NCBI GenBank assembly: GCA_020632035.1
Contig: JACKGG010000002.1
Coordinates: forward strand, 88,095 to 152,094
From: Candidatus Nomurabacteria bacterium
GTDB lineage: Bacteria; Patescibacteriota; Minisyncoccia; Phycocordibacterales; UBA918
Length of the DNA stretch: 64,000 nucleotides
Direction: 5' to 3'
The first letter of the stretch is position 1; each line of letters begins with the position of its first letter. This document shows, one piece after another, positions 1,825 to 56,257 of this stretch. Position numbers and translations under genes: made by a program. Below the pieces are notes generated by a model that did not search any database, had not been told where the DNA came from, and was given only the letters and a program-made list of their open reading frames with translations.

Positions 1825-1847
1825 CATTGCTTTTATTAAGAATTATC

Positions 1848-1907
1848 AGCTGGTAGCGGTGAATAAGTCCCCCAGACTAATTCACCATCTCCATTGTAGA
1901 GGTCACA
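1848..1907 (+). repeat. fifth, partial copy of the tRNA-Val-derived unit, immediately upstream of the DHH gene start
   Basis: AGCTGGTAG + the same 37-nt insert + TTGTAGAGGTCACA. Its GAGG lies 8 nt upstream of the ATG at 1912. Confidence 0.7.
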
Positions 1908-1911
1908 AATT

Positions 1912-7916: not shown

Positions 7917-8193
7917 TGTAAGATACCTCTGACTAACTAATTTGTGATATACACGATATATGGGTTATAAAAAAAATACCCACTCCTGTTTCAACTACTG
8001 CTGGTTGTATGCGTGTACCCCACGCTGGACTATGGTGACAACCCCCGAAAAAGAACAATATTCTGCCTTTTATCATTAGGGTACGTCTACCAAATATGTC
8101 ATAACACTGTAAATCTTGGTATTTAAACATTTACGCCACCACTATGATTAAACGATCTGTATTACAGCATAAAGTATTATTCCGTTCAAGCCA

Positions 8194-8210
8194 GGAGCAG
8201 GCTCGGTCAC
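8194..8210. repeat. direct partial copy of the tRNA-Phe 3' segment (12 nt, GGAGCAGGCTCG) fused to GTCAC
   Basis: Matches the tRNA-Phe gene (antisense) at 8388-8399. The match stops inside the T-loop. It sits ~175 bp from the tRNA 3' end. Confidence 0.6.
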
Positions 8211-8312
8211 TCTCACGGCTATTTTCTTCGTAAACTCATAATATAGCTCGTTCCATTGACCTCCACTCGTCGCGTTCCTCGGCTCCGCCAGCGGACTTTA
8301 TCGCGACTCGGC

Positions 8313-8380
8313 TTCGAGCCTGCTTCCAAGCTACAAACGAAAACAGCCTATATGCGGAGCATATAGGCTGTACGTTTGTG
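8313..8380. repeat. inverted 19-nt copy of the tRNA-Phe 3' end (TTCGAGCCTGCTtCCAAGC) followed by a 48-nt perfect palindrome abutting the tRNA 3' end
   Basis: 8313-8331 reads in tRNA sense on the plus strand, opposite to the gene. The palindrome is TACAAACGAAAACAGCCTATATGC-GGAG-CATATAGGCTGTACGTTTGTG. Confidence 0.65.
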
Positions 8381-8877: not shown

Positions 8878-8930
8878 GCCCCTTTAGTTAAATGGATATA
8901 ACCGCTCACTCAGAGCGGGCATTGTAGGCT
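8878..8930 (+). repeat. pseudo-tRNA: a copy of the 5' two-thirds of tRNA-Arg (acceptor, D-arm, anticodon arm with an altered loop, start of T-stem), followed by a 27-nt hairpin
   Basis: GCCCCTTTAGTTAAATGGATATAACCGCTCAC is identical to 9062-9093, then diverges. It lacks a T-arm and 3' acceptor. The hairpin CTGAAAAAG..CTTTTTCAG is at 8931-8957. Confidence 0.7.
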
Positions 8931-9061
8931 GAAAAAGACTGGGAGACTTTTTCAGAAGGTTAACTAGCATTTTATGACGTAAGGAAATAAAATGGTGATA
9001 ACCTATACTGATCTCGTAGAGATAGATTCCGTTGGAATCGAACCTATTGGTTACAATTGAA

Positions 9062-9136
9062 TACTTAAGCCCCTTTAGTTAAATGGATATAACCGCTCAC
9101 TCCTAACGAGCAGTTGTAGGTTCGATTCCTGCAGGG
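9062..9136 (+). tRNA. tRNA-Arg (anticodon CCT)
   Basis: GCCCCTT-TA-GTTA-AATGGATA-TAAC-C-GCTCA-CTCCTAA-CGAGC-AGTT-GTAGG-TTCGATT-CCTGC-AGGGGGC-A. There is one A·C mismatch at the base of the anticodon stem. Confidence 0.75.
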
Positions 9137-9340
9137 GGCACTAAAACACAACTCAACGGTCTTTGCGTTTTTCTTGTGTACCACAATCGTTTTGGTGCGC
9201 ACATCGTTCATGTACCCCTCGGGTGCTTGGCCGGGAAACATGCCAAGGCGCACTTTTTGGCGTAATCCTTGCTTGGTGTTCTCGGAAAGAGAATCGACAT
9301 AATATTTACTTTGTCCGAAAGCCATGCTCAACATGAACTT
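9137..9340 (-). pseudogene. remnant of a large serine recombinase (end of the catalytic domain through the start of the recombinase domain), truncated at the tRNA-Arg 3' end
   Basis: ..YYVDSLSENTKQGLRQKVRLGMFPGQAPEGY.. resembles the E-helix plus the G-x-x-P-x-GY start of the large-serine-recombinase 'recombinase' domain. The catalytic N-terminus and the C-terminal ~350 aa are missing. The open frame runs on into the tRNA. Confidence 0.4.
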
Positions 9341-21534: not shown

Positions 21535-21553
21535 CCTTGCGGGTGTTTTTTGT
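21525..21553 (-). terminator. intrinsic terminator at the rnpB 3' end
   Basis: AAAAAACACCC-TTGC-GGGTGTTTTTT. Confidence 0.6.
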
Positions 21554-21900
21554 ACACATAAGCCGGATTCTGTCAGGCCGAAGCCCGGATGATTATTTAC
21601 CTAGGATGTATATTGCTATACACCTCTTGCGACTCTCTTTGCCGGCTCAAAATCCCAGAAGGATATTGAGCCGGCAAAGCGCGGTCTTGCACGCAGGTAA
21701 GGATTTAGCCGTTTCACCCTCTTGGTTTCCCAAAAGGCTATTCCCGAAGGAACTCCTCAGCTTTCGCTTTGAACGTCTCTGCTCGCACCTCTTATACTGC
21801 TATACGACGGGTGTTACCCGCTACCATCCTCCACAAATAAATGTGGGCGTGTCCGGACTTTCCTCCTCGTATAAATACGAGGCAATCATCGTGTCTGTAC
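21552..21900 (-). ncRNA. rnpB: RNase P RNA (bacterial type), ~350 nt
   Basis: The minus strand carries a P3 hairpin CCTCGTATTTATACGAGG followed by P4 GAGGAAAGTCCGGAC. Near the 3' end it carries ACAGAATCCGGCTTATG (the P4'/P2' consensus ACAGAAUCCGGCUUA). Ends are approximate. Confidence 0.75.
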
Positions 21901-22300
21901 ATTATGCAATATTATTATAAAATTGCAACTTTAATATAAAAATAAAAGGACCCTAGTGGACTCTGCCGAGCATATTGCTACTCAGCGAGGCCCACGTTAG
22001 GGTACTTGACTTTTTCCTATGAGAAGTTGCGCTATTAAGCGTCATTCTCTTTAGCTGGCCAATAGGCTGCTTTTGTAGGGTTGTTTAGCTTGAATGCCGA
22101 TTCATAATTTTAATCAACGAACTGTCGGGTCATGACAGATCATGTTTTCCTCCCATTGTTGGTTGTTTTAAAAATGTCCTGCAGTTGCTAGTATATCGCT
22201 GGATTGAGCGAGCTAGTGGTTAAAACCCACCAGAACTTCAATTTCCCGCTCGAACTGCAGGAAAGGCATACTAGCATGTAATAGATAACTTGTCAACTAT

Positions 22301-28850: not shown

Positions 28851-29348
28851 TTAATCTAGATAACTATCAAAATACACTGCGTGGCAGGTGTAGCCACCTG
28901 GGTTCTTCTGGAGATAATCTTGGTGGAAATCTTCAGCTGGCCAAAATCTGGTGAGGGGTTCTAGAGTGGTCACAACCTCCCCGTCCCATCTCTCAGATTC
29001 ATTCACTATTTCTATCATTTCTTCAGCGATTTTTTTCTCCTCTTCGTTACTAAAAAATATTGCTGACCGATACGAAGTGCCTTTATCGTTCCCCTGTTGA
29101 TTAAGTGTAGTCGGATTGTGTATCTGAAAAAAGAAATCAAGTATGTGTCGGTAGTCGGTTAGTTCGTCATCATACTCTATCTCAACGGCTTCAGCGTGGC
29201 CTGGGTGATTTTCGTAGGTTGGATTGTCGTTTCTGCCTCCGGTGTAGCCGGCTTCGGTCGAGATAATGCCTGGTTGGGAGCGGATGAGGTCTTCGAGTCC
29301 CCAGAAGCATCCACCTGCTAGTACTGATTTTTTAATCATGAGTTGCAA
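28851..29348 (-). CDS. msrA: peptide methionine sulfoxide reductase MsrA
   Basis: GCFWG active-site motif near the N-terminus; typical length. Confidence 0.85.
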
Positions 29349-29818
29349 TTATAGATTTTCTTCTCTCTACGAGAGCTGTACACCTTGTCGCCATCTTACT
29401 TCGTAAACTCGTAAGATTGCTGGCAAGGTCTTGCGAAATGGGGCCCGTCCCATTTCTCACCCAGAAGCATCCACCTGCTAGTACTGATTTTTTAATCATG
29501 AGTTGCAATTATAGATTTTCTTCTCTCTACGAGAGCTGTACACCTTGTCGCCATCTTACTTCGTAAACTCGTAAGATTGCTGGCAAGGTCTTGCGAAATG
29601 GGGCCCGTCCCATTTCTCACCCAGAAGCATCCACCTGCTAGTACTGATTTTTTAATCATGAGTTGCAATTATAGATTTTCTTCTCTCTACGAGAGCTGTA
29701 CACCTTGTCGCCATCTTACTTCGTAAACTCGTAAGATTGCTGGCAAGGTCTTGCGAAATGGGGCCCGTCCCATTTCTCACCCAGAAGCATCCACCTGCTA
29801 GTACTGATTTTTTAATCA
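29300..29818. repeat. three perfect 160-bp tandem units plus a 38-bp partial unit. Each contains the msrA start region and a ~106-nt hairpin-rich element.
   Basis: Units begin at 29301, 29461 and 29621, with a partial at 29781. Each unit is the msrA first 13 codons + 5' flank, followed by the element TCTCTACGAGAGCTGTACACCTTGTCGCCATCTTACTTCGTAAACTCGTAAGATTGCTGGCAAGGTCTTGCG + GAAATGGGGCCCGTCCCATTTC + TCAC. Confidence 0.9.
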
Positions 29819-33142: not shown

Positions 33143-33859
33143 TTATACTTTTTCTATCTCCGCAACCACCGCCATATGGTCGCTAACACCACTAACCAAC
33201 CGGACGTTACTTACCTCATATTGTTTCGTTGTAAACAATCCGTCTACCATGTAGGGCAGCGGCCCGGCCTTATGTATATTTCCGTCTATACTAGTTAGGT
33301 ACTTAAGTGGAACATTGTCTTTTAGCTGTTCTGTTATCTTTGTAAAAATCTCTCTTCCTCTAGGGGCGTTAAAATCACCACAAAGAACTAACTCCTTACT
33401 ACTATTCAGTATATCTAGCATGTTTTTCAAAGCGTCTCTTTGATATTGAGTCACCTCCCCTTTTTCAGTAACTGGCAAGTGCGTTGTTACTATATTATAG
33501 TTCAAGCCACTTATTTCAATGCTTGCTTGTAAAATAAAATATTGTGAGGATAAGATTCTGTCTAACTCTAACATTTCAACTTTTACTGGAGCAGGTTTTT
33601 CTAGCTGGCCAAAGATAAGATGTCTATTTTCATCAATAATGGATTTTGCAAAAATCCCGATTCCTTTAGTCAAATCATTATCAGCATATTTTCTCATGGG
33701 AGCAAATACAGAATCCATATGCAACAAATCTTCAAAAAATTTGATGTCATGATCATAAAGTTCTTGCAGACAAATAACGTCCGGTTTCTCTTTTTCGAGA
33801 AGATTTTTAATTTTATCTAAGTGTTTACTTCCTTCAATGTTGACTGAGACAAATTTCAT
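33143..33859 (-). CDS. endonuclease/exonuclease/phosphatase (EEP) family protein
   Basis: N-terminal E in VNIEG, ICLQEL, GDFNAP and C-terminal SDHMAV motifs. Confidence 0.65.
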   Translation of the reverse strand: MKFVSVNIEGSKHLDKIKNLLEKEKPDVICLQELYDHDIKFFEDLLHMDSVFAPMRKYADNDLTKGIGIFAKSIIDENRHLIFGQLEKPAPVKVEMLELDRILSSQYFILQASIEISGLNYNIVTTHLPVTEKGEVTQYQRDALKNMLDILNSSKELVLCGDFNAPRGREIFTKITEQLKDNVPLKYLTSIDGNIHKAGPLPYMVDGLFTTKQYEVSNVRLVSGVSDHMAVVAEIEKV

Positions 33860-38507: not shown

Positions 38508-38583
38508 CAGGGACTCGAACTTTTATAGGTTTCTATATATAGCTCAAATGAATTTTCTGCCGGACAGGGACTCGGTCACGAAT
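38508..38583. repeat. direct partial copies of the tRNA-Gln 3' segment (13 nt at 38508-20; 18 nt at 38557-74), the second fused to GTCACGAAT
   Basis: CTGCCGGACAGGGACTCG is identical to 38735-38752 of the tRNA-Gln gene (antisense). The match ends in the T-loop. Confidence 0.65.
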
Positions 38584-38663
38584 AAATTTTCTACGAAAAT
38601 TTTTCTCGACCCCGACTCGCCGACAAGCCCTCCCTTCGGTCGTCTTGTATACCGGCTCCGTCT

Positions 38664-38718
38664 TTCGAGTCCCTGCGGTCAGGTAATTTAGTAAAACCCC
38701 AATGCATACGCATTGGGG
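38664..38718. repeat. inverted 12-nt copy of the tRNA-Gln T-arm (TTCGAGTCCCTG) plus a hairpin (CCCCAATGC-ATA-CGCATTGGGG) abutting the tRNA 3' end
   Basis: It reads in tRNA sense on the plus strand, whereas the gene is on the minus strand. Same layout as the Phe and CAT loci. Confidence 0.6.
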
Positions 38719-38733
38719 TCAAACTAAATTATG

Positions 38734-46677: not shown

Positions 46678-46877
46678 TATAACATCATATATTTATAATT
46701 ATAAACTGACCCCTACAGTTCTATAGCAGAGAAAAGGGCAGCTATAATAAAGAAAAGACTGAGTATAAAGCCAATTATTTTCTTATTGCAGAATGAGAAA
46801 GTCTAGGAGACTTATGAAGGCTTATTAAGGGTATTTTGAAGAATGAAAAATACCTAATGAGTGGACAGGTTCTGTAA

Positions 46878-46899
46878 GGACCGGAATCGAGTCACGAAT
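46878..46899. repeat. direct partial copy of the tRNA-CAT(47054..47124) T-arm (CCGGAATCGA) fused to GTCACGAAT
   Basis: Identical to 47063-47072 of the tRNA gene (antisense). The break falls in the T-loop. GTCACGAAT is the same 9-mer as at the tRNA-Gln locus. Confidence 0.55.
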
Positions 46900-46991
46900 C
46901 ACTAAGTATATTTATTCGGATTGCTCCAAATCTACAAGTGTTCTTGACCCCGCCTCAGCCTATTTCGTCTCCCAGACGAAGGCTTCCGGCC

Positions 46992-47050
46992 GTTCGATTC
47001 CTCCCGCTGGAATAAAAACAAAACCAGCATGAAGCTGGTTTTGTTTTTAT
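46992..47050. repeat. inverted partial copy of the tRNA-CAT 3' end (GTTCGATTCC-TCCCGC) plus a bidirectional terminator hairpin abutting the tRNA 3' end
   Basis: In tRNA sense on the plus strand. The hairpin is AAAACCAGC-ATGA-GCTGGTTTT with a T-run. Confidence 0.55.
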
Positions 47051-47053
47051 TTG

Positions 47054-47124
47054 TTGCGGGGCCCGGAATCGAACCGGGGTCTGGAGGTTATGAGCCTCCC
47101 GAGGTACCTCTCCTCTACCCCGCT
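47054..47124 (-). tRNA. tRNA with a CAT anticodon and an A1·A72 mismatch (initiator-like acceptor end; could also be Ile2)
   Basis: The reverse complement gives AGCGGGG-TA-GAGG-AGAGGTA-CCTC-G-GGAGG-CTCATAA-CCTCC-AGAC-CCCGG-TTCGATT-CCGGG-CCCCGCA-A. Position 1 A does not pair with 72 A. Confidence 0.7.
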
Positions 47125-47310
47125 ATGTATTTAACTTTACTTTTTCTGCAACGTTGGAGCAATCTCTCCTCATCTCTACGAGATCTGTACACCTTGTCGC
47201 CATTTTATTTCGTAAACTCACAAAATTGCTGGCAAGGTCTTGCGGAAGCGTCCCACGCTTCCTCACCCCGCTATGTATTTAACTTTACTTTTTCTGCAAC
47301 GTTGGAGTAC
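47117..47310. repeat. the same ~106-nt element as in the 29.3-kb array, flanked by a 43-bp perfect direct repeat that includes the first 8 nt of the tRNA-CAT 5' end
   Basis: DR CCCCGCTATGTATTTAACTTTACTTTTTCTGCAACGTTGGAG at 47117-47159 and 47266-47308. The element at 47161-47265 has the same 5' core as the 29-kb copy, then a different hairpin, GGAAGCGTCCCACGCTTCC, and the same TCAC end. Confidence 0.85.
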
Positions 47311-47345
47311 GTGTGAAAATACACTATTTTTAGTGAGTTGGCAAC

Positions 47346-55325: not shown

Positions 55326-55465
55326 GTCCCGAGGACCGAATTGTTATTTTTGTCCCGAGGTCGGTCCTCGGGACAAACAGACCTCGGGCAAAGTGGCATT
55401 AGAGAACATCAGGACAAAGCTTCATCCTATGCCCCGCTATCCCGAGGTCCGACCTCGGGATAGGT
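55326..55465. repeat. cluster of REP-type palindromes (GTCCCGAGGtcgGtCCTCGGGAC family) 3' of the RAYT gene
   Basis: Copies or half-copies at 55326-38, 55352-75, 55376-88 and 55438-65. Confidence 0.8.
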
Positions 55466-56130
55466 TTGCGCTTGAGTAGTCAAGCCAATGAGTGATCTGA
55501 TCATTGAAAGAATTTTCCTCCAGAAAGTATTGAGGAAAACTATCTTTAGAGAGAACATTAGACACAACTCTATTCACTCCCTGATAATCAAGGTAGCTTG
55601 AATATTTATATTCCTGCAAGTGTTTCAAAGCTTCATTTCTATTTTTAATACCAGTCTCTTTCCACTCTGGCTCAATTAATTTGATTGGATTTAGATGAAT
55701 GTACGAAAATAAATATTTTAGATATTCATCTGTATCAGCTCGCTTAGCTTTGTATCTACCTTCAAATAAGACACCTGTGCGATCATGTTTCTTATTAAAG
55801 TACATGGAGTATCCAGTTGAAAGTTTTTTCATAAACTGACTAATTCCTCCTTCGTTTACTTCTTTTATTAAAATATGAAAATGATTGGGCATTAATACGT
55901 AAGCACCAATGTCAACAAGGACCTTATTTCTATCAATTAAAAATAAATCGTCATATTTTTTACCTGCTTTATATTCATCCTTTATTGAAACAGGATTTGT
56001 ACTGTTGCATAAATACAGCAATGCCATAAAACGGTCATAGTCTGACTTTGTTTTGTATATTACCCTTTTCTCTGTACCTCGATTATAAATGTGGTAATAC
56101 TCATCGACAGCAATAGAGTTATCTTTCAAC
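55437..56130 (-). mobile_element. REP-associated tyrosine transposase (RAYT, IS200/IS605-like Y1 HuH transposase). The start is probably the internal Met (MLKDNS..), because the upstream part of the ORF reads through a REP palindrome.
   Basis: YHIYNRG, HuH motif MPNHFHILI, and a catalytic-Tyr region (RYKAKRADTDEYLKYLFSYIHLNP). REP palindromes flank it on both sides. Confidence 0.7.
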
Positions 56131-56149
56131 ATACAATTAATATACCACA

Positions 56150-56257
56150 CTGTCCCGAGGACCGACCTCGGGACAGATAAACATTTACTTACAAACAACA
56201 CAAAAAGTGGCCAGAAAGCGCTTTTTGATATTGTCCCGAGGTCGGACCTCGGGACAG
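56150..56257. repeat. two REP palindromes 5' of the RAYT gene
   Basis: CTGTCCCGAGGACCGACCTCGGGACAG (56150-77) and TTGTCCCGAGGTCGGACCTCGGGACAG (56231-57). Confidence 0.8.

Follow-up and report, generated by a model that had tools for sequence, protein, structure and literature searches.

The 11-nt sequence TTCGTAAACTC, originally predicted to be a recurrent hairpin loop, is the apical loop of hairpin P3 in a structured, non-coding repeat element of ~95 nt. The repeat occurs at many targets and in both orientations, starts precisely at UGAG/UGAA, is bracketed by duplications, is present in some relatives and absent from others, forms perfect arrays and contains covarying helices. We read it, with a probability of roughly 0.55, as a lineage-specific, non-autonomous mobile insertion element of Kaiserbacteria-like Patescibacteria. 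The DNA analyzed here (the window, 64 kb) is from a Patescibacteria genome whose msrA and ValRS have their closest named relatives in “Candidatus Kaiserbacteria”. The window pyrG is 100% identical to one in the MAG GCA_020428885.1 (contigs L003 and L165), but ValRS there is 93% identical, and this bin therefore either mixes close strains or is not the source genome.

The 11-mer and the repeat that contains it

Exact matches to the 11-mer were found five times in the window, all on the + strand (8227-8237, 29400-29410, 29560-29570, 29720-29730, and 47209-47219), as compared to 0.05 expected from shuffles, and 0 of 100 window shuffles reached five copies. The claim that the sequence recurs too often for chance is thereby borne out. 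When two mismatches were allowed, 28 matches were counted versus 22 expected, which is not above chance. An exact form in 100-fold excess combined with a two-mismatch count at chance argues against a frequent-oligonucleotide skew within the window. The three central matches sit in identical units of the msrA array, so the number of independent loci is three.

The different complementary stems initially assigned to these loci held up unevenly. The msrA stem (ATCTTAC/GTAAGAT) is a perfect 7 bp, and the tRNA-Met stem (ATTTTAT/ACAAAAT) pairs at 6 of 7 positions on the + strand and at 7 of 7, with one G.U, on the - strand. Two double compensatory changes separate this pair of stems, and their covariation is real. 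In contrast, the stem in the tRNA-Phe tail (CTATTTT/AATATAG) contains an internal T.T mismatch and an asymmetric 14-nt loop, and RNAfold retains just GCUAU/AUAGC (5 bp), making it the weakest of the three. The 26 nt surrounding the loop are 81-85% identical across the three loci (repeat family D6). The loci are therefore homologous copies of one repeat, and a chance null is the wrong comparison. The candidate RNA motif thus stands as a real and structurally constrained hairpin (covariation, 10 distinct copies) but not as an autonomous motif; instead of an 11-mer that recurs with independently evolved stems, it is the P3 loop of a four-helix repeat, and the loop itself varies among copies.

On the minus strand the 11-mer reads GAGUUUACGAA, and the element is laid out as 5'-UGAG, P1 (loop UGGGA), GCAAG, P2 enclosing P3, GUACAG, and P4 (loop GUA)-3'. 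P1 has a variable stem. The P3 stem is also variable (7-8 bp) and carries a 10-13-nt loop framed by G...GA, while P4 has 5 bp and reads CUC-GUA-GAG in the three copies (msrA, tRNA-Met, and tRNA-Arg) on which our covariance model, R1, was built. Over 75 nt, the msrA and tRNA-Met loci share 91% identity (D4), and all three copies adopt a common fold when read on the strand of the adjacent gene (z ~ -3.3 to -3.7). These copies are the only strong R1 matches in the window, and the 11-mer is embedded in 72-nt matches of 90-99 bits. In related metagenome contigs, R1 scored 58-86 bits in L138 and L164, with weaker but significant covariance-model matches (25-58 bits) in L139 and L164. This structure-aware search of the window and related contigs places copies beside tRNA genes, beside msrA, and in tandem arrays.

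Thirteen copies, 10 of them distinct, were aligned from the window and contigs L138, L139, and L164 (four organisms). Standard pairs fill 96.5% of the paired alignment cells, and 14 of 18 pairs have changed on both sides; none of 500 shuffles scored as high, and slid registers were 38-53% paired. The alignment was fitted to the model, which somewhat inflates these pairing figures, although the signal is strong in all three helices. Wobble pairs are few (three), all are G.U on the element-sense strand, and A.C is absent. This pattern is a weak indication that the element-sense strand is the one that matters, and the minus strand (the sense strand of the neighboring genes), rather than the + strand on which the motif was first read, is likely functional on the basis of these three G.U pairs.

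The P3 loop takes the forms GAGUUUACGAA, GGAGUUUACGAG, GACGUAAGGAA, GACGAAGGAA, GAAUACUUGGA, GAGGUACGAA, CGAGCAAAGCGAA, and GAAGAAUGAA, which share only the G...GA frame and, in most copies, GAA. A 4-bp hairpin replaces P3 in one copy. The loops of P1 (UGGGA) and P4 (GUA) are conserved at least as well as the P3 loop frame. The copies encode no protein, and terminal inverted repeats are absent when the 5' end, UGAGAAAUGGG, is compared with the reverse complement of the 3' end, CUCUCUACGAGAG.

Copies, flanking duplications, and empty sites

The msrA array (29300-29818, - strand) was delimited by TRF as 160 nt x 3.2 at 100% identity. Its first element copy spans 29363-29459 (R1 99.3 bits, with the common fold, P3 loop at 29400-29410, and a UGAG start following target GGG), and the identical second and third copies span 29523-29619 (P3 loop 29560-29570) and 29683-29779 (P3 loop 29720-29730). 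Each unit comprises the element, a 24-nt promoter-like spacer with TATAAT, and the first 39-40 nt of msrA, and the upstream-most msrA copy retains the native GTG start. Short-read assemblies of the same organism contain one unit, and the count of 3.2 in the window is therefore provisional.

Two further strong copies lie upstream of tRNA genes. The copy at 47172-47265 (- strand, R1 98.5 bits, P3 loop 47209-47219) precedes tRNA-Met (47053-47124) and is flanked by a perfect 43-nt direct repeat (47117-47159 and 47265-47307; D10). The copy at 8930-9023 (+ strand, R1 89.9 bits) precedes tRNA-Arg (9069-9141), carries GACGUAAGGAA in place of the 11-mer as its P3 loop, and itself follows an orphan copy of tRNA-Arg nt 1-51 (8878-8928; D11). 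As a separate observation, just five positions (35, 36, 38, 41, and 45) set this orphan apart from the functional gene, and with these changes its anticodon arm forms a perfect 6-bp hairpin, CCGCUC-ACUCA-GAGCGG, which does not resemble random decay. A diverged copy with the P3 loop GAAGAAUGAA lies antisense to tRNA-Met at 46794-46881 (+ strand, R2 27 bits, E = 3e-4), where its P4 adjoins a 10-nt copy of the tRNA-Met T-arm (46881-46890).

Among the relatives, L138 carries four copies upstream of msrA and one in the opposite orientation at the msrA 3' end, one copy being nested in P4 of another. L164, which was reached through a single match of element-translated peptides in a protein database, has one copy antisense within tRNA-Ile, and L139 has copies downstream of tRNA-Gln and tRNA-Asp. 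The targets thus comprise both ends of msrA as well as tRNA-Met, Arg, Ile, Gln, and Asp at their 5' or 3' ends, and copies are found in either orientation. The msrA homologues with N-terminal extensions (P0047, P0086, and P0013) were considered as carriers and set aside, these extensions being native upstream sequence.

A direct repeat of the neighboring gene end brackets every well-defined copy, and the intact copy is always the functional gene, with the orphan fragment on the opposite side of the element. The duplication measures 43 nt at tRNA-Met (promoter region plus the first 5 nt), 39-40 nt at msrA in both the window and L138 (starting at base 2 of the start codon), and 44-51 nt at tRNA-Arg (nt 1-51). 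For the antisense insertions it measures 33 nt at the msrA 3' end in L138 and 38 nt at tRNA-Ile in L164 (anticodon loop to 3' end). The same sites are empty elsewhere: msrA in L139, L159, and L169, tRNA-Gln in L159, tRNA-Phe in L166, and tRNA-Arg and tRNA-Val in L167. The native upstream flank in L167 is matched in the window by the sequence to the left of the orphan tRNA-Arg fragment. Long gene-end duplications, empty orthologous sites, and this flank match together show insertion and not an ancestral structure.

The junctions show several regularities. UGAG/UGAA begins the element in 12 copies and is preceded by G in 10 of the 12, often as part of a GG or GGG run, while the four preceding bases vary (TGGG, GGGG, AGGC, AGAA, CAAG, GAGG, TTCG, and CGAG). 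The duplication starts exactly at tRNA +1 for tRNA-Arg and tRNA-Val, and 1-2 nt past the discriminator in the antisense tRNA-Ile insertion. At tRNA-Met the duplication starts at 47307, the predicted transcription start, with the last base of the -10 box TATTTT at 47316. The tRNA-Arg insertion point falls exactly at the T-stem/T-loop boundary (53|54).

tRNA tails and the surrounding window

Related structures follow tRNA-Phe, Gln, and Met in the window and tRNA-Phe, Gln, and Asp in L165, L167, and L139. All of these tails share a plan in which a terminator hairpin is followed by an antisense copy of the tRNA 3' end, a structured body, and a direct tRNA copy. The antisense copy stops at position 54 every time (...UCGAA). 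The direct copy starts in the T-loop (position 54-60) and reaches the discriminator or, in some cases, extends past it through the terminator; it measures 18 nt for tRNA-Gln, 12 nt for tRNA-Phe, and 10 nt for tRNA-Met in the window, ~40 nt in L167, and ~60 nt (diverged) in L139. We infer that the tails, with both an antisense and a direct copy of the T-loop-to-3'-end segment, are older or related insertions of the same system. The same modules are found in tails and in the msrA array, in agreement with the original prediction that the 11-mer links the tRNA tails to the amplified element.

The tRNA-Phe tail (8190-8377, - strand) has a weak, local covariance-model match (9 bits). It consists of the terminator hairpin (8333-8377), an antisense copy of nt 54-73 (8313-8332), a body, a P2/P3-like hairpin carrying the 11-mer (~8216-8249), GUGAC, and a direct copy of nt 56-67 (8194-8205). 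Given the weak match, we base its assignment to the core family on the similarity over 26 nt (D6) and on the architecture that they share, and we regard this tail as a probable diverged or mosaic relative of the element family. In the tRNA-Gln tail (38557-38732, - strand), the terminator is followed by an antisense T-arm copy (38664-38681), a body, a P4-like uuuucGUAgaaaa (38587-38599), UUCGUGAC, and an 18-nt direct copy of nt 56-73 (38557-38574). A second, shorter tRNA-Gln T-arm remnant, GTTCGAGTCCCTG, lies ~40 nt past the first direct copy (38508-38520) and suggests serial insertions at this site. The tRNA-Met tail (46891-47052, - strand) contains the terminator, an antisense T-arm copy (46992-47008), a P1-like hairpin with a UGGGA loop, and UUCGUGAC (46891-46898). 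The tail body in L139 is a clear P1-P4 family member whose antisense segment falls exactly between P1 and P2. In both its tRNA-Gln and tRNA-Asp tails this segment is GGGACUCGAA, and P4 lies directly against UUCGAGUCCC in the duplicated 3' portion of the tRNA. In L139, the acceptor sequence of the orphan tRNA-Gln 3' copy is that of a different allele, the one carried by the window organism, so that the insertion is either old or derived from a different lineage.

tRNA-Val is accompanied by an array as well. A perfect array of 110 nt x 4.2 (1312-1773) precedes the gene, each unit consisting of nt 1-22, a 12-bp hairpin replacing the anticodon arm, nt 37-48, and 40 nt; L165 has two units (1066-1500) and L167 none. 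Just downstream of tRNA-Val, the window (1846-1908) and L165 contain a related piece, CUGGUAG-hairpin-(A/C)UCUCC-AUUGUAGAGGUCACAA. Its hairpin in L167 (7330-7450) differs in sequence and is still complementary, giving the piece the look of conserved sequence and not junk. A T-box leader was considered for this downstream hairpin and rejected. Counting R-type copies, tails, and the tRNA-Val array, five of the eight tRNA genes in the 64-kb window, as well as msrA, carry insertions or arrays. Short-read contigs of the window organism break at the tRNA and element loci.

A Pfam scan of ~66 ORFs in the window returned housekeeping functions throughout, except for one Y1/IS200-like protein, and no integrase, reverse transcriptase, or DDE transposase. 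The Y1 protein (254 aa, 55437-56201, - strand) is RAYT-like, and its gene lies among four copies of the palindrome GTCCCGAGG-N-CCTCGGGAC that flank it (55341-56257; D7/D8) in a REP/RAYT-like unit; these palindromes are unrelated in sequence to the repeat element. A 238-aa Exo_endo_phos (ExoIII/AP-endonuclease-like) protein at 33143-33859 is probably a housekeeping Xth; this fold also supplies the endonuclease of non-LTR retroelements. A gathering-threshold scan of the window with Rfam 15 recovered only RNase P and tRNAs, the RNase P RNA (bacterial class A, 21547-21901) being divergent at 106 bits versus a 100-bit threshold. The L138 array region, scanned in E-value mode, yielded nothing beyond chance matches below the threshold.

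Collections were searched with strict patterns. The 14-base pattern AGCN8GAGTTTACGAA matched at least 120 stretches of viral contigs, and among the matches listed these were chance occurrences without hairpin context. GGCGACAAGGTGTACAG gave 14 chance matches in viral contigs, none of which fitted the covariance model, GGNGANNNNNNNTACNGNTCTCGTAGAGA gave one chance match in GTDB representative genomes (in Porphyromonas pyrG), and AGCAN7GAGTTTACGAAN7GGNGA gave 11 chance matches in coding regions of JGI metagenomes. With patterns this strict, the absence holds for near-identical copies and not for the whole family, which on this basis appears narrow. blastn of the element against phages and plasmids returned nothing, and we found no description of such elements in the literature.

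Likeness to known elements and possible modes of insertion

Comparison with described systems suggests that the repeat works most like a MITE-type non-autonomous element, with a tRNA footprint resembling integrase insertion at a T-loop. Like Correia/NEMIS, RUP, and ERIC, it is ~100 nt long, non-coding, strongly folded, multi-copy, lineage-specific, and located beside genes; such elements can also bring promoter- or terminator-like signals and are polymorphic between strains. Unlike MITEs, it has no terminal inverted repeats, its duplications are variable and long (18 to ~60 nt or more) rather than a fixed 2-9 bp, it is strongly biased toward tRNA gene ends, it forms tandem arrays of element plus target, and no partner IS was identified. 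The short, fixed target-site duplication of a DDE-type MITE is not seen at any measured site (33, 38, 39-40, 43, and 44-51 nt). At tRNA genes the resemblance is to integrative elements. The attB of mycobacteriophage Ms6 lies in the T-loop of tRNA-Ala (PMC1762012), and dusA-specific integrases target the 5' end of a protein gene (PMC4482086). Both types leave a direct repeat that extends from the T-loop to the 3' end of the tRNA, or that covers a gene 5' end, with the gene restored and an orphan left behind, and such a T-loop-to-3'-end repeat flanks the tail inserts here. In contrast to these integrative elements, our repeat is 0.1-0.2 kb without an integrase or cargo (the tail inserts are 150-250 nt and non-coding), also inserts antisense and at anticodon-loop, acceptor, and coding positions, and leaves an additional antisense tRNA 3' copy in the tails.

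Other systems were compared as well. IS200/IS605 hairpin elements and REP/RAYT are likewise hairpin-rich without inverted terminal repeats, and a Y1 protein is present in the window. These systems insert without duplication beside a fixed tetra- or pentanucleotide, whereas the copies here, compared with IS200/IS605 (PATE) and REP, have long duplications, no constant 4-5-nt target, and flanks that are merely G-biased. For an IS110-type bridge RNA or seekRNA, no adjacent recombinase was found, and a target-complementary segment exists only in the tail-type copies. A CRISPR array was rejected, as whole 160-nt units are 100% identical, including the msrA-derived segment, with no differing spacers. 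A hammerhead, HDV, or hatchet ribozyme setting the UGAG end was dropped for want of any model match or core motif, an integron attC was considered and rejected, and a TnpB/IscB guide RNA was discarded, there being no nuclease gene and the duplicated “guide” adjoining its own target.

In the mobile-element reading, a conserved fold that includes the loops of P1 and P4 and the frame of the P3 loop would be recognized, as RNA or single-stranded DNA, by machinery that mobilizes the element in trans. Arrays would most simply grow by unequal recombination between the duplicated target copies, and spread between lineages would proceed by transformation and homologous recombination within a conserved gene segment. 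Such inter-lineage recombination would explain why duplications often end at a gene boundary and why a spacer looks like an msrA promoter from a different lineage. In the msrA units, the spacer that follows P4 (29340-29362, ...AUCUAUAAUUGCAACUCAUG) does resemble the native TATAAT promoter region of msrA in L169 (1-90, ...UUUUAUAAUGCUACACUUACGUAUAUG), which suggests that spacer and gene end may form a longer DNA segment carried over from another lineage. Against mobility, none of the copies is associated with a transposase, integrase, or reverse transcriptase, the duplications are variable and far above normal target-site duplications in length, and the sample is small (~13 copies from four organisms). 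To our knowledge, no described transposition chemistry fits such long and variable duplications.

A retro origin is ranked second and is unlikely. Here, element RNA with a UGAG 5' end would be reverse-transcribed with template switching onto cellular tRNA or mRNA at G-runs and RNA ends, snap-back priming from terminator hairpins would yield the antisense tRNA copy, and the chimeric, possibly concatemeric cDNA would integrate at the gene by homologous recombination. SINE-like retroelements and template switching share with our element a precise 5' end, flanking duplications of variable length, tRNA association, RNA-end chimeras, and concatemers. The G preceding UGAG/UGAA in 10 of 12 copies resembles template switching, duplication boundaries coincide with RNA ends (tRNA-Arg/Val +1, the tRNA-Ile 3' end, and the predicted tRNA-Met start), the arrays are perfect and concatemer-like, and every tail places a terminator hairpin before an antisense copy that stops at 54. 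However, the gene-boundary coincidences are explained equally by inter-lineage transfer with recombination within conserved gene sequence, and the L169-like spacer looks DNA-derived; the latter leads us to downgrade these coincidences as evidence of an RNA intermediate. In addition, the boundary of the msrA 3' insertion in L138 is not a plausible RNA end, CCA is never copied, no A-rich or LINE-like tail was seen, some boundaries fit DNA recombination better, and no reverse transcriptase was seen in the window; we know of no reverse-transcriptase partner for the element.

The remaining alternatives appear improbable to differing degrees. A host-beneficial module (a small RNA, or a cis-acting cassette that provides promoters ahead of genes and, 3' of tRNAs, terminators or processing signals), spread by ordinary recombination and transformation, would account for the strong structural conservation, the intact gene beside every copy, the TATAAT-like boxes just upstream of the restored msrA and tRNA-Arg starts, and the terminator hairpins directly after the tRNA, and the window contains a type IV pilus/competence-like cluster. 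We nonetheless consider it improbable, as the corresponding sites in close relatives are free of the element and show ordinary promoters and terminators, copies occur in both orientations, nested (L138), and in redundant arrays, and a sigma-70 scan found no promoter in the msrA array. Self-guided insertion, for which the odds are similarly poor, would use the P1-P2 segment of tail-type copies as a guide complementary to the tRNA T-loop/T-stem, with P4 marking the joining point and an enzyme acting in trans, in the manner of group II intron EBS-IBS pairing or a bridge RNA. The L139 tRNA-Gln and tRNA-Asp tails fit this arrangement, the antisense segment co-varies with four T-arm sequences (Phe, the second Phe allele of L165, Gln/Asp, and Met), and the tRNA-Arg insertion falls at 53|54. 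Yet the msrA, tRNA-Met 5', and tRNA-Ile copies have an invariant GCAAG at that position with no target complementarity, which limits the model to tail-type copies; the antisense copy could also be a by-product of insertion, and no candidate enzyme is known. Chance recurrence, oligonucleotide skew, or an assembly artefact can be dismissed with near certainty for the motif itself: the two-mismatch count near expectation and the array copy number that differs between assemblies might favor it, but the exact motif is 100-fold over expectation, lies inside the 90-99-bit matches, and belongs to an element present in independent ENA, JGI, and Logan assemblies.

Patescibacteria have tiny genomes with few recognized mobile elements. 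A small structured repeat with an insertion mode unlike those described is of more interest than a simple motif. It may represent a new kind of enzyme-less, ~95-nt mobile RNA/DNA module, integrating distinctively at tRNA T-loops and other gene ends, duplicating 18 to ~60 nt or more, targeted either by P1-P2 guide pairing with the T-loop or by reverse-transcriptase template switching onto cellular RNAs, and mobilized in trans by a Patescibacteria enzyme; we offer this as a tentative proposal against which the odds still lie. On a practical level, short-read assemblies of such genomes end at tRNA loci because of these repeats, and the leftover gene fragments mislead annotation. The covarying fold, which has no Rfam entry, together with the long target duplications and the T-loop complementarity of some copies, points to an undescribed insertion chemistry or targeting logic. 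Identification of the partner enzyme could uncover a recombinase or reverse transcriptase with a new activity, and perhaps a new programmable insertion tool. Should guide pairing or template switching prove to be at work, the element would be a bacterial counterpart of SINE-like or guide-programmed insertion.
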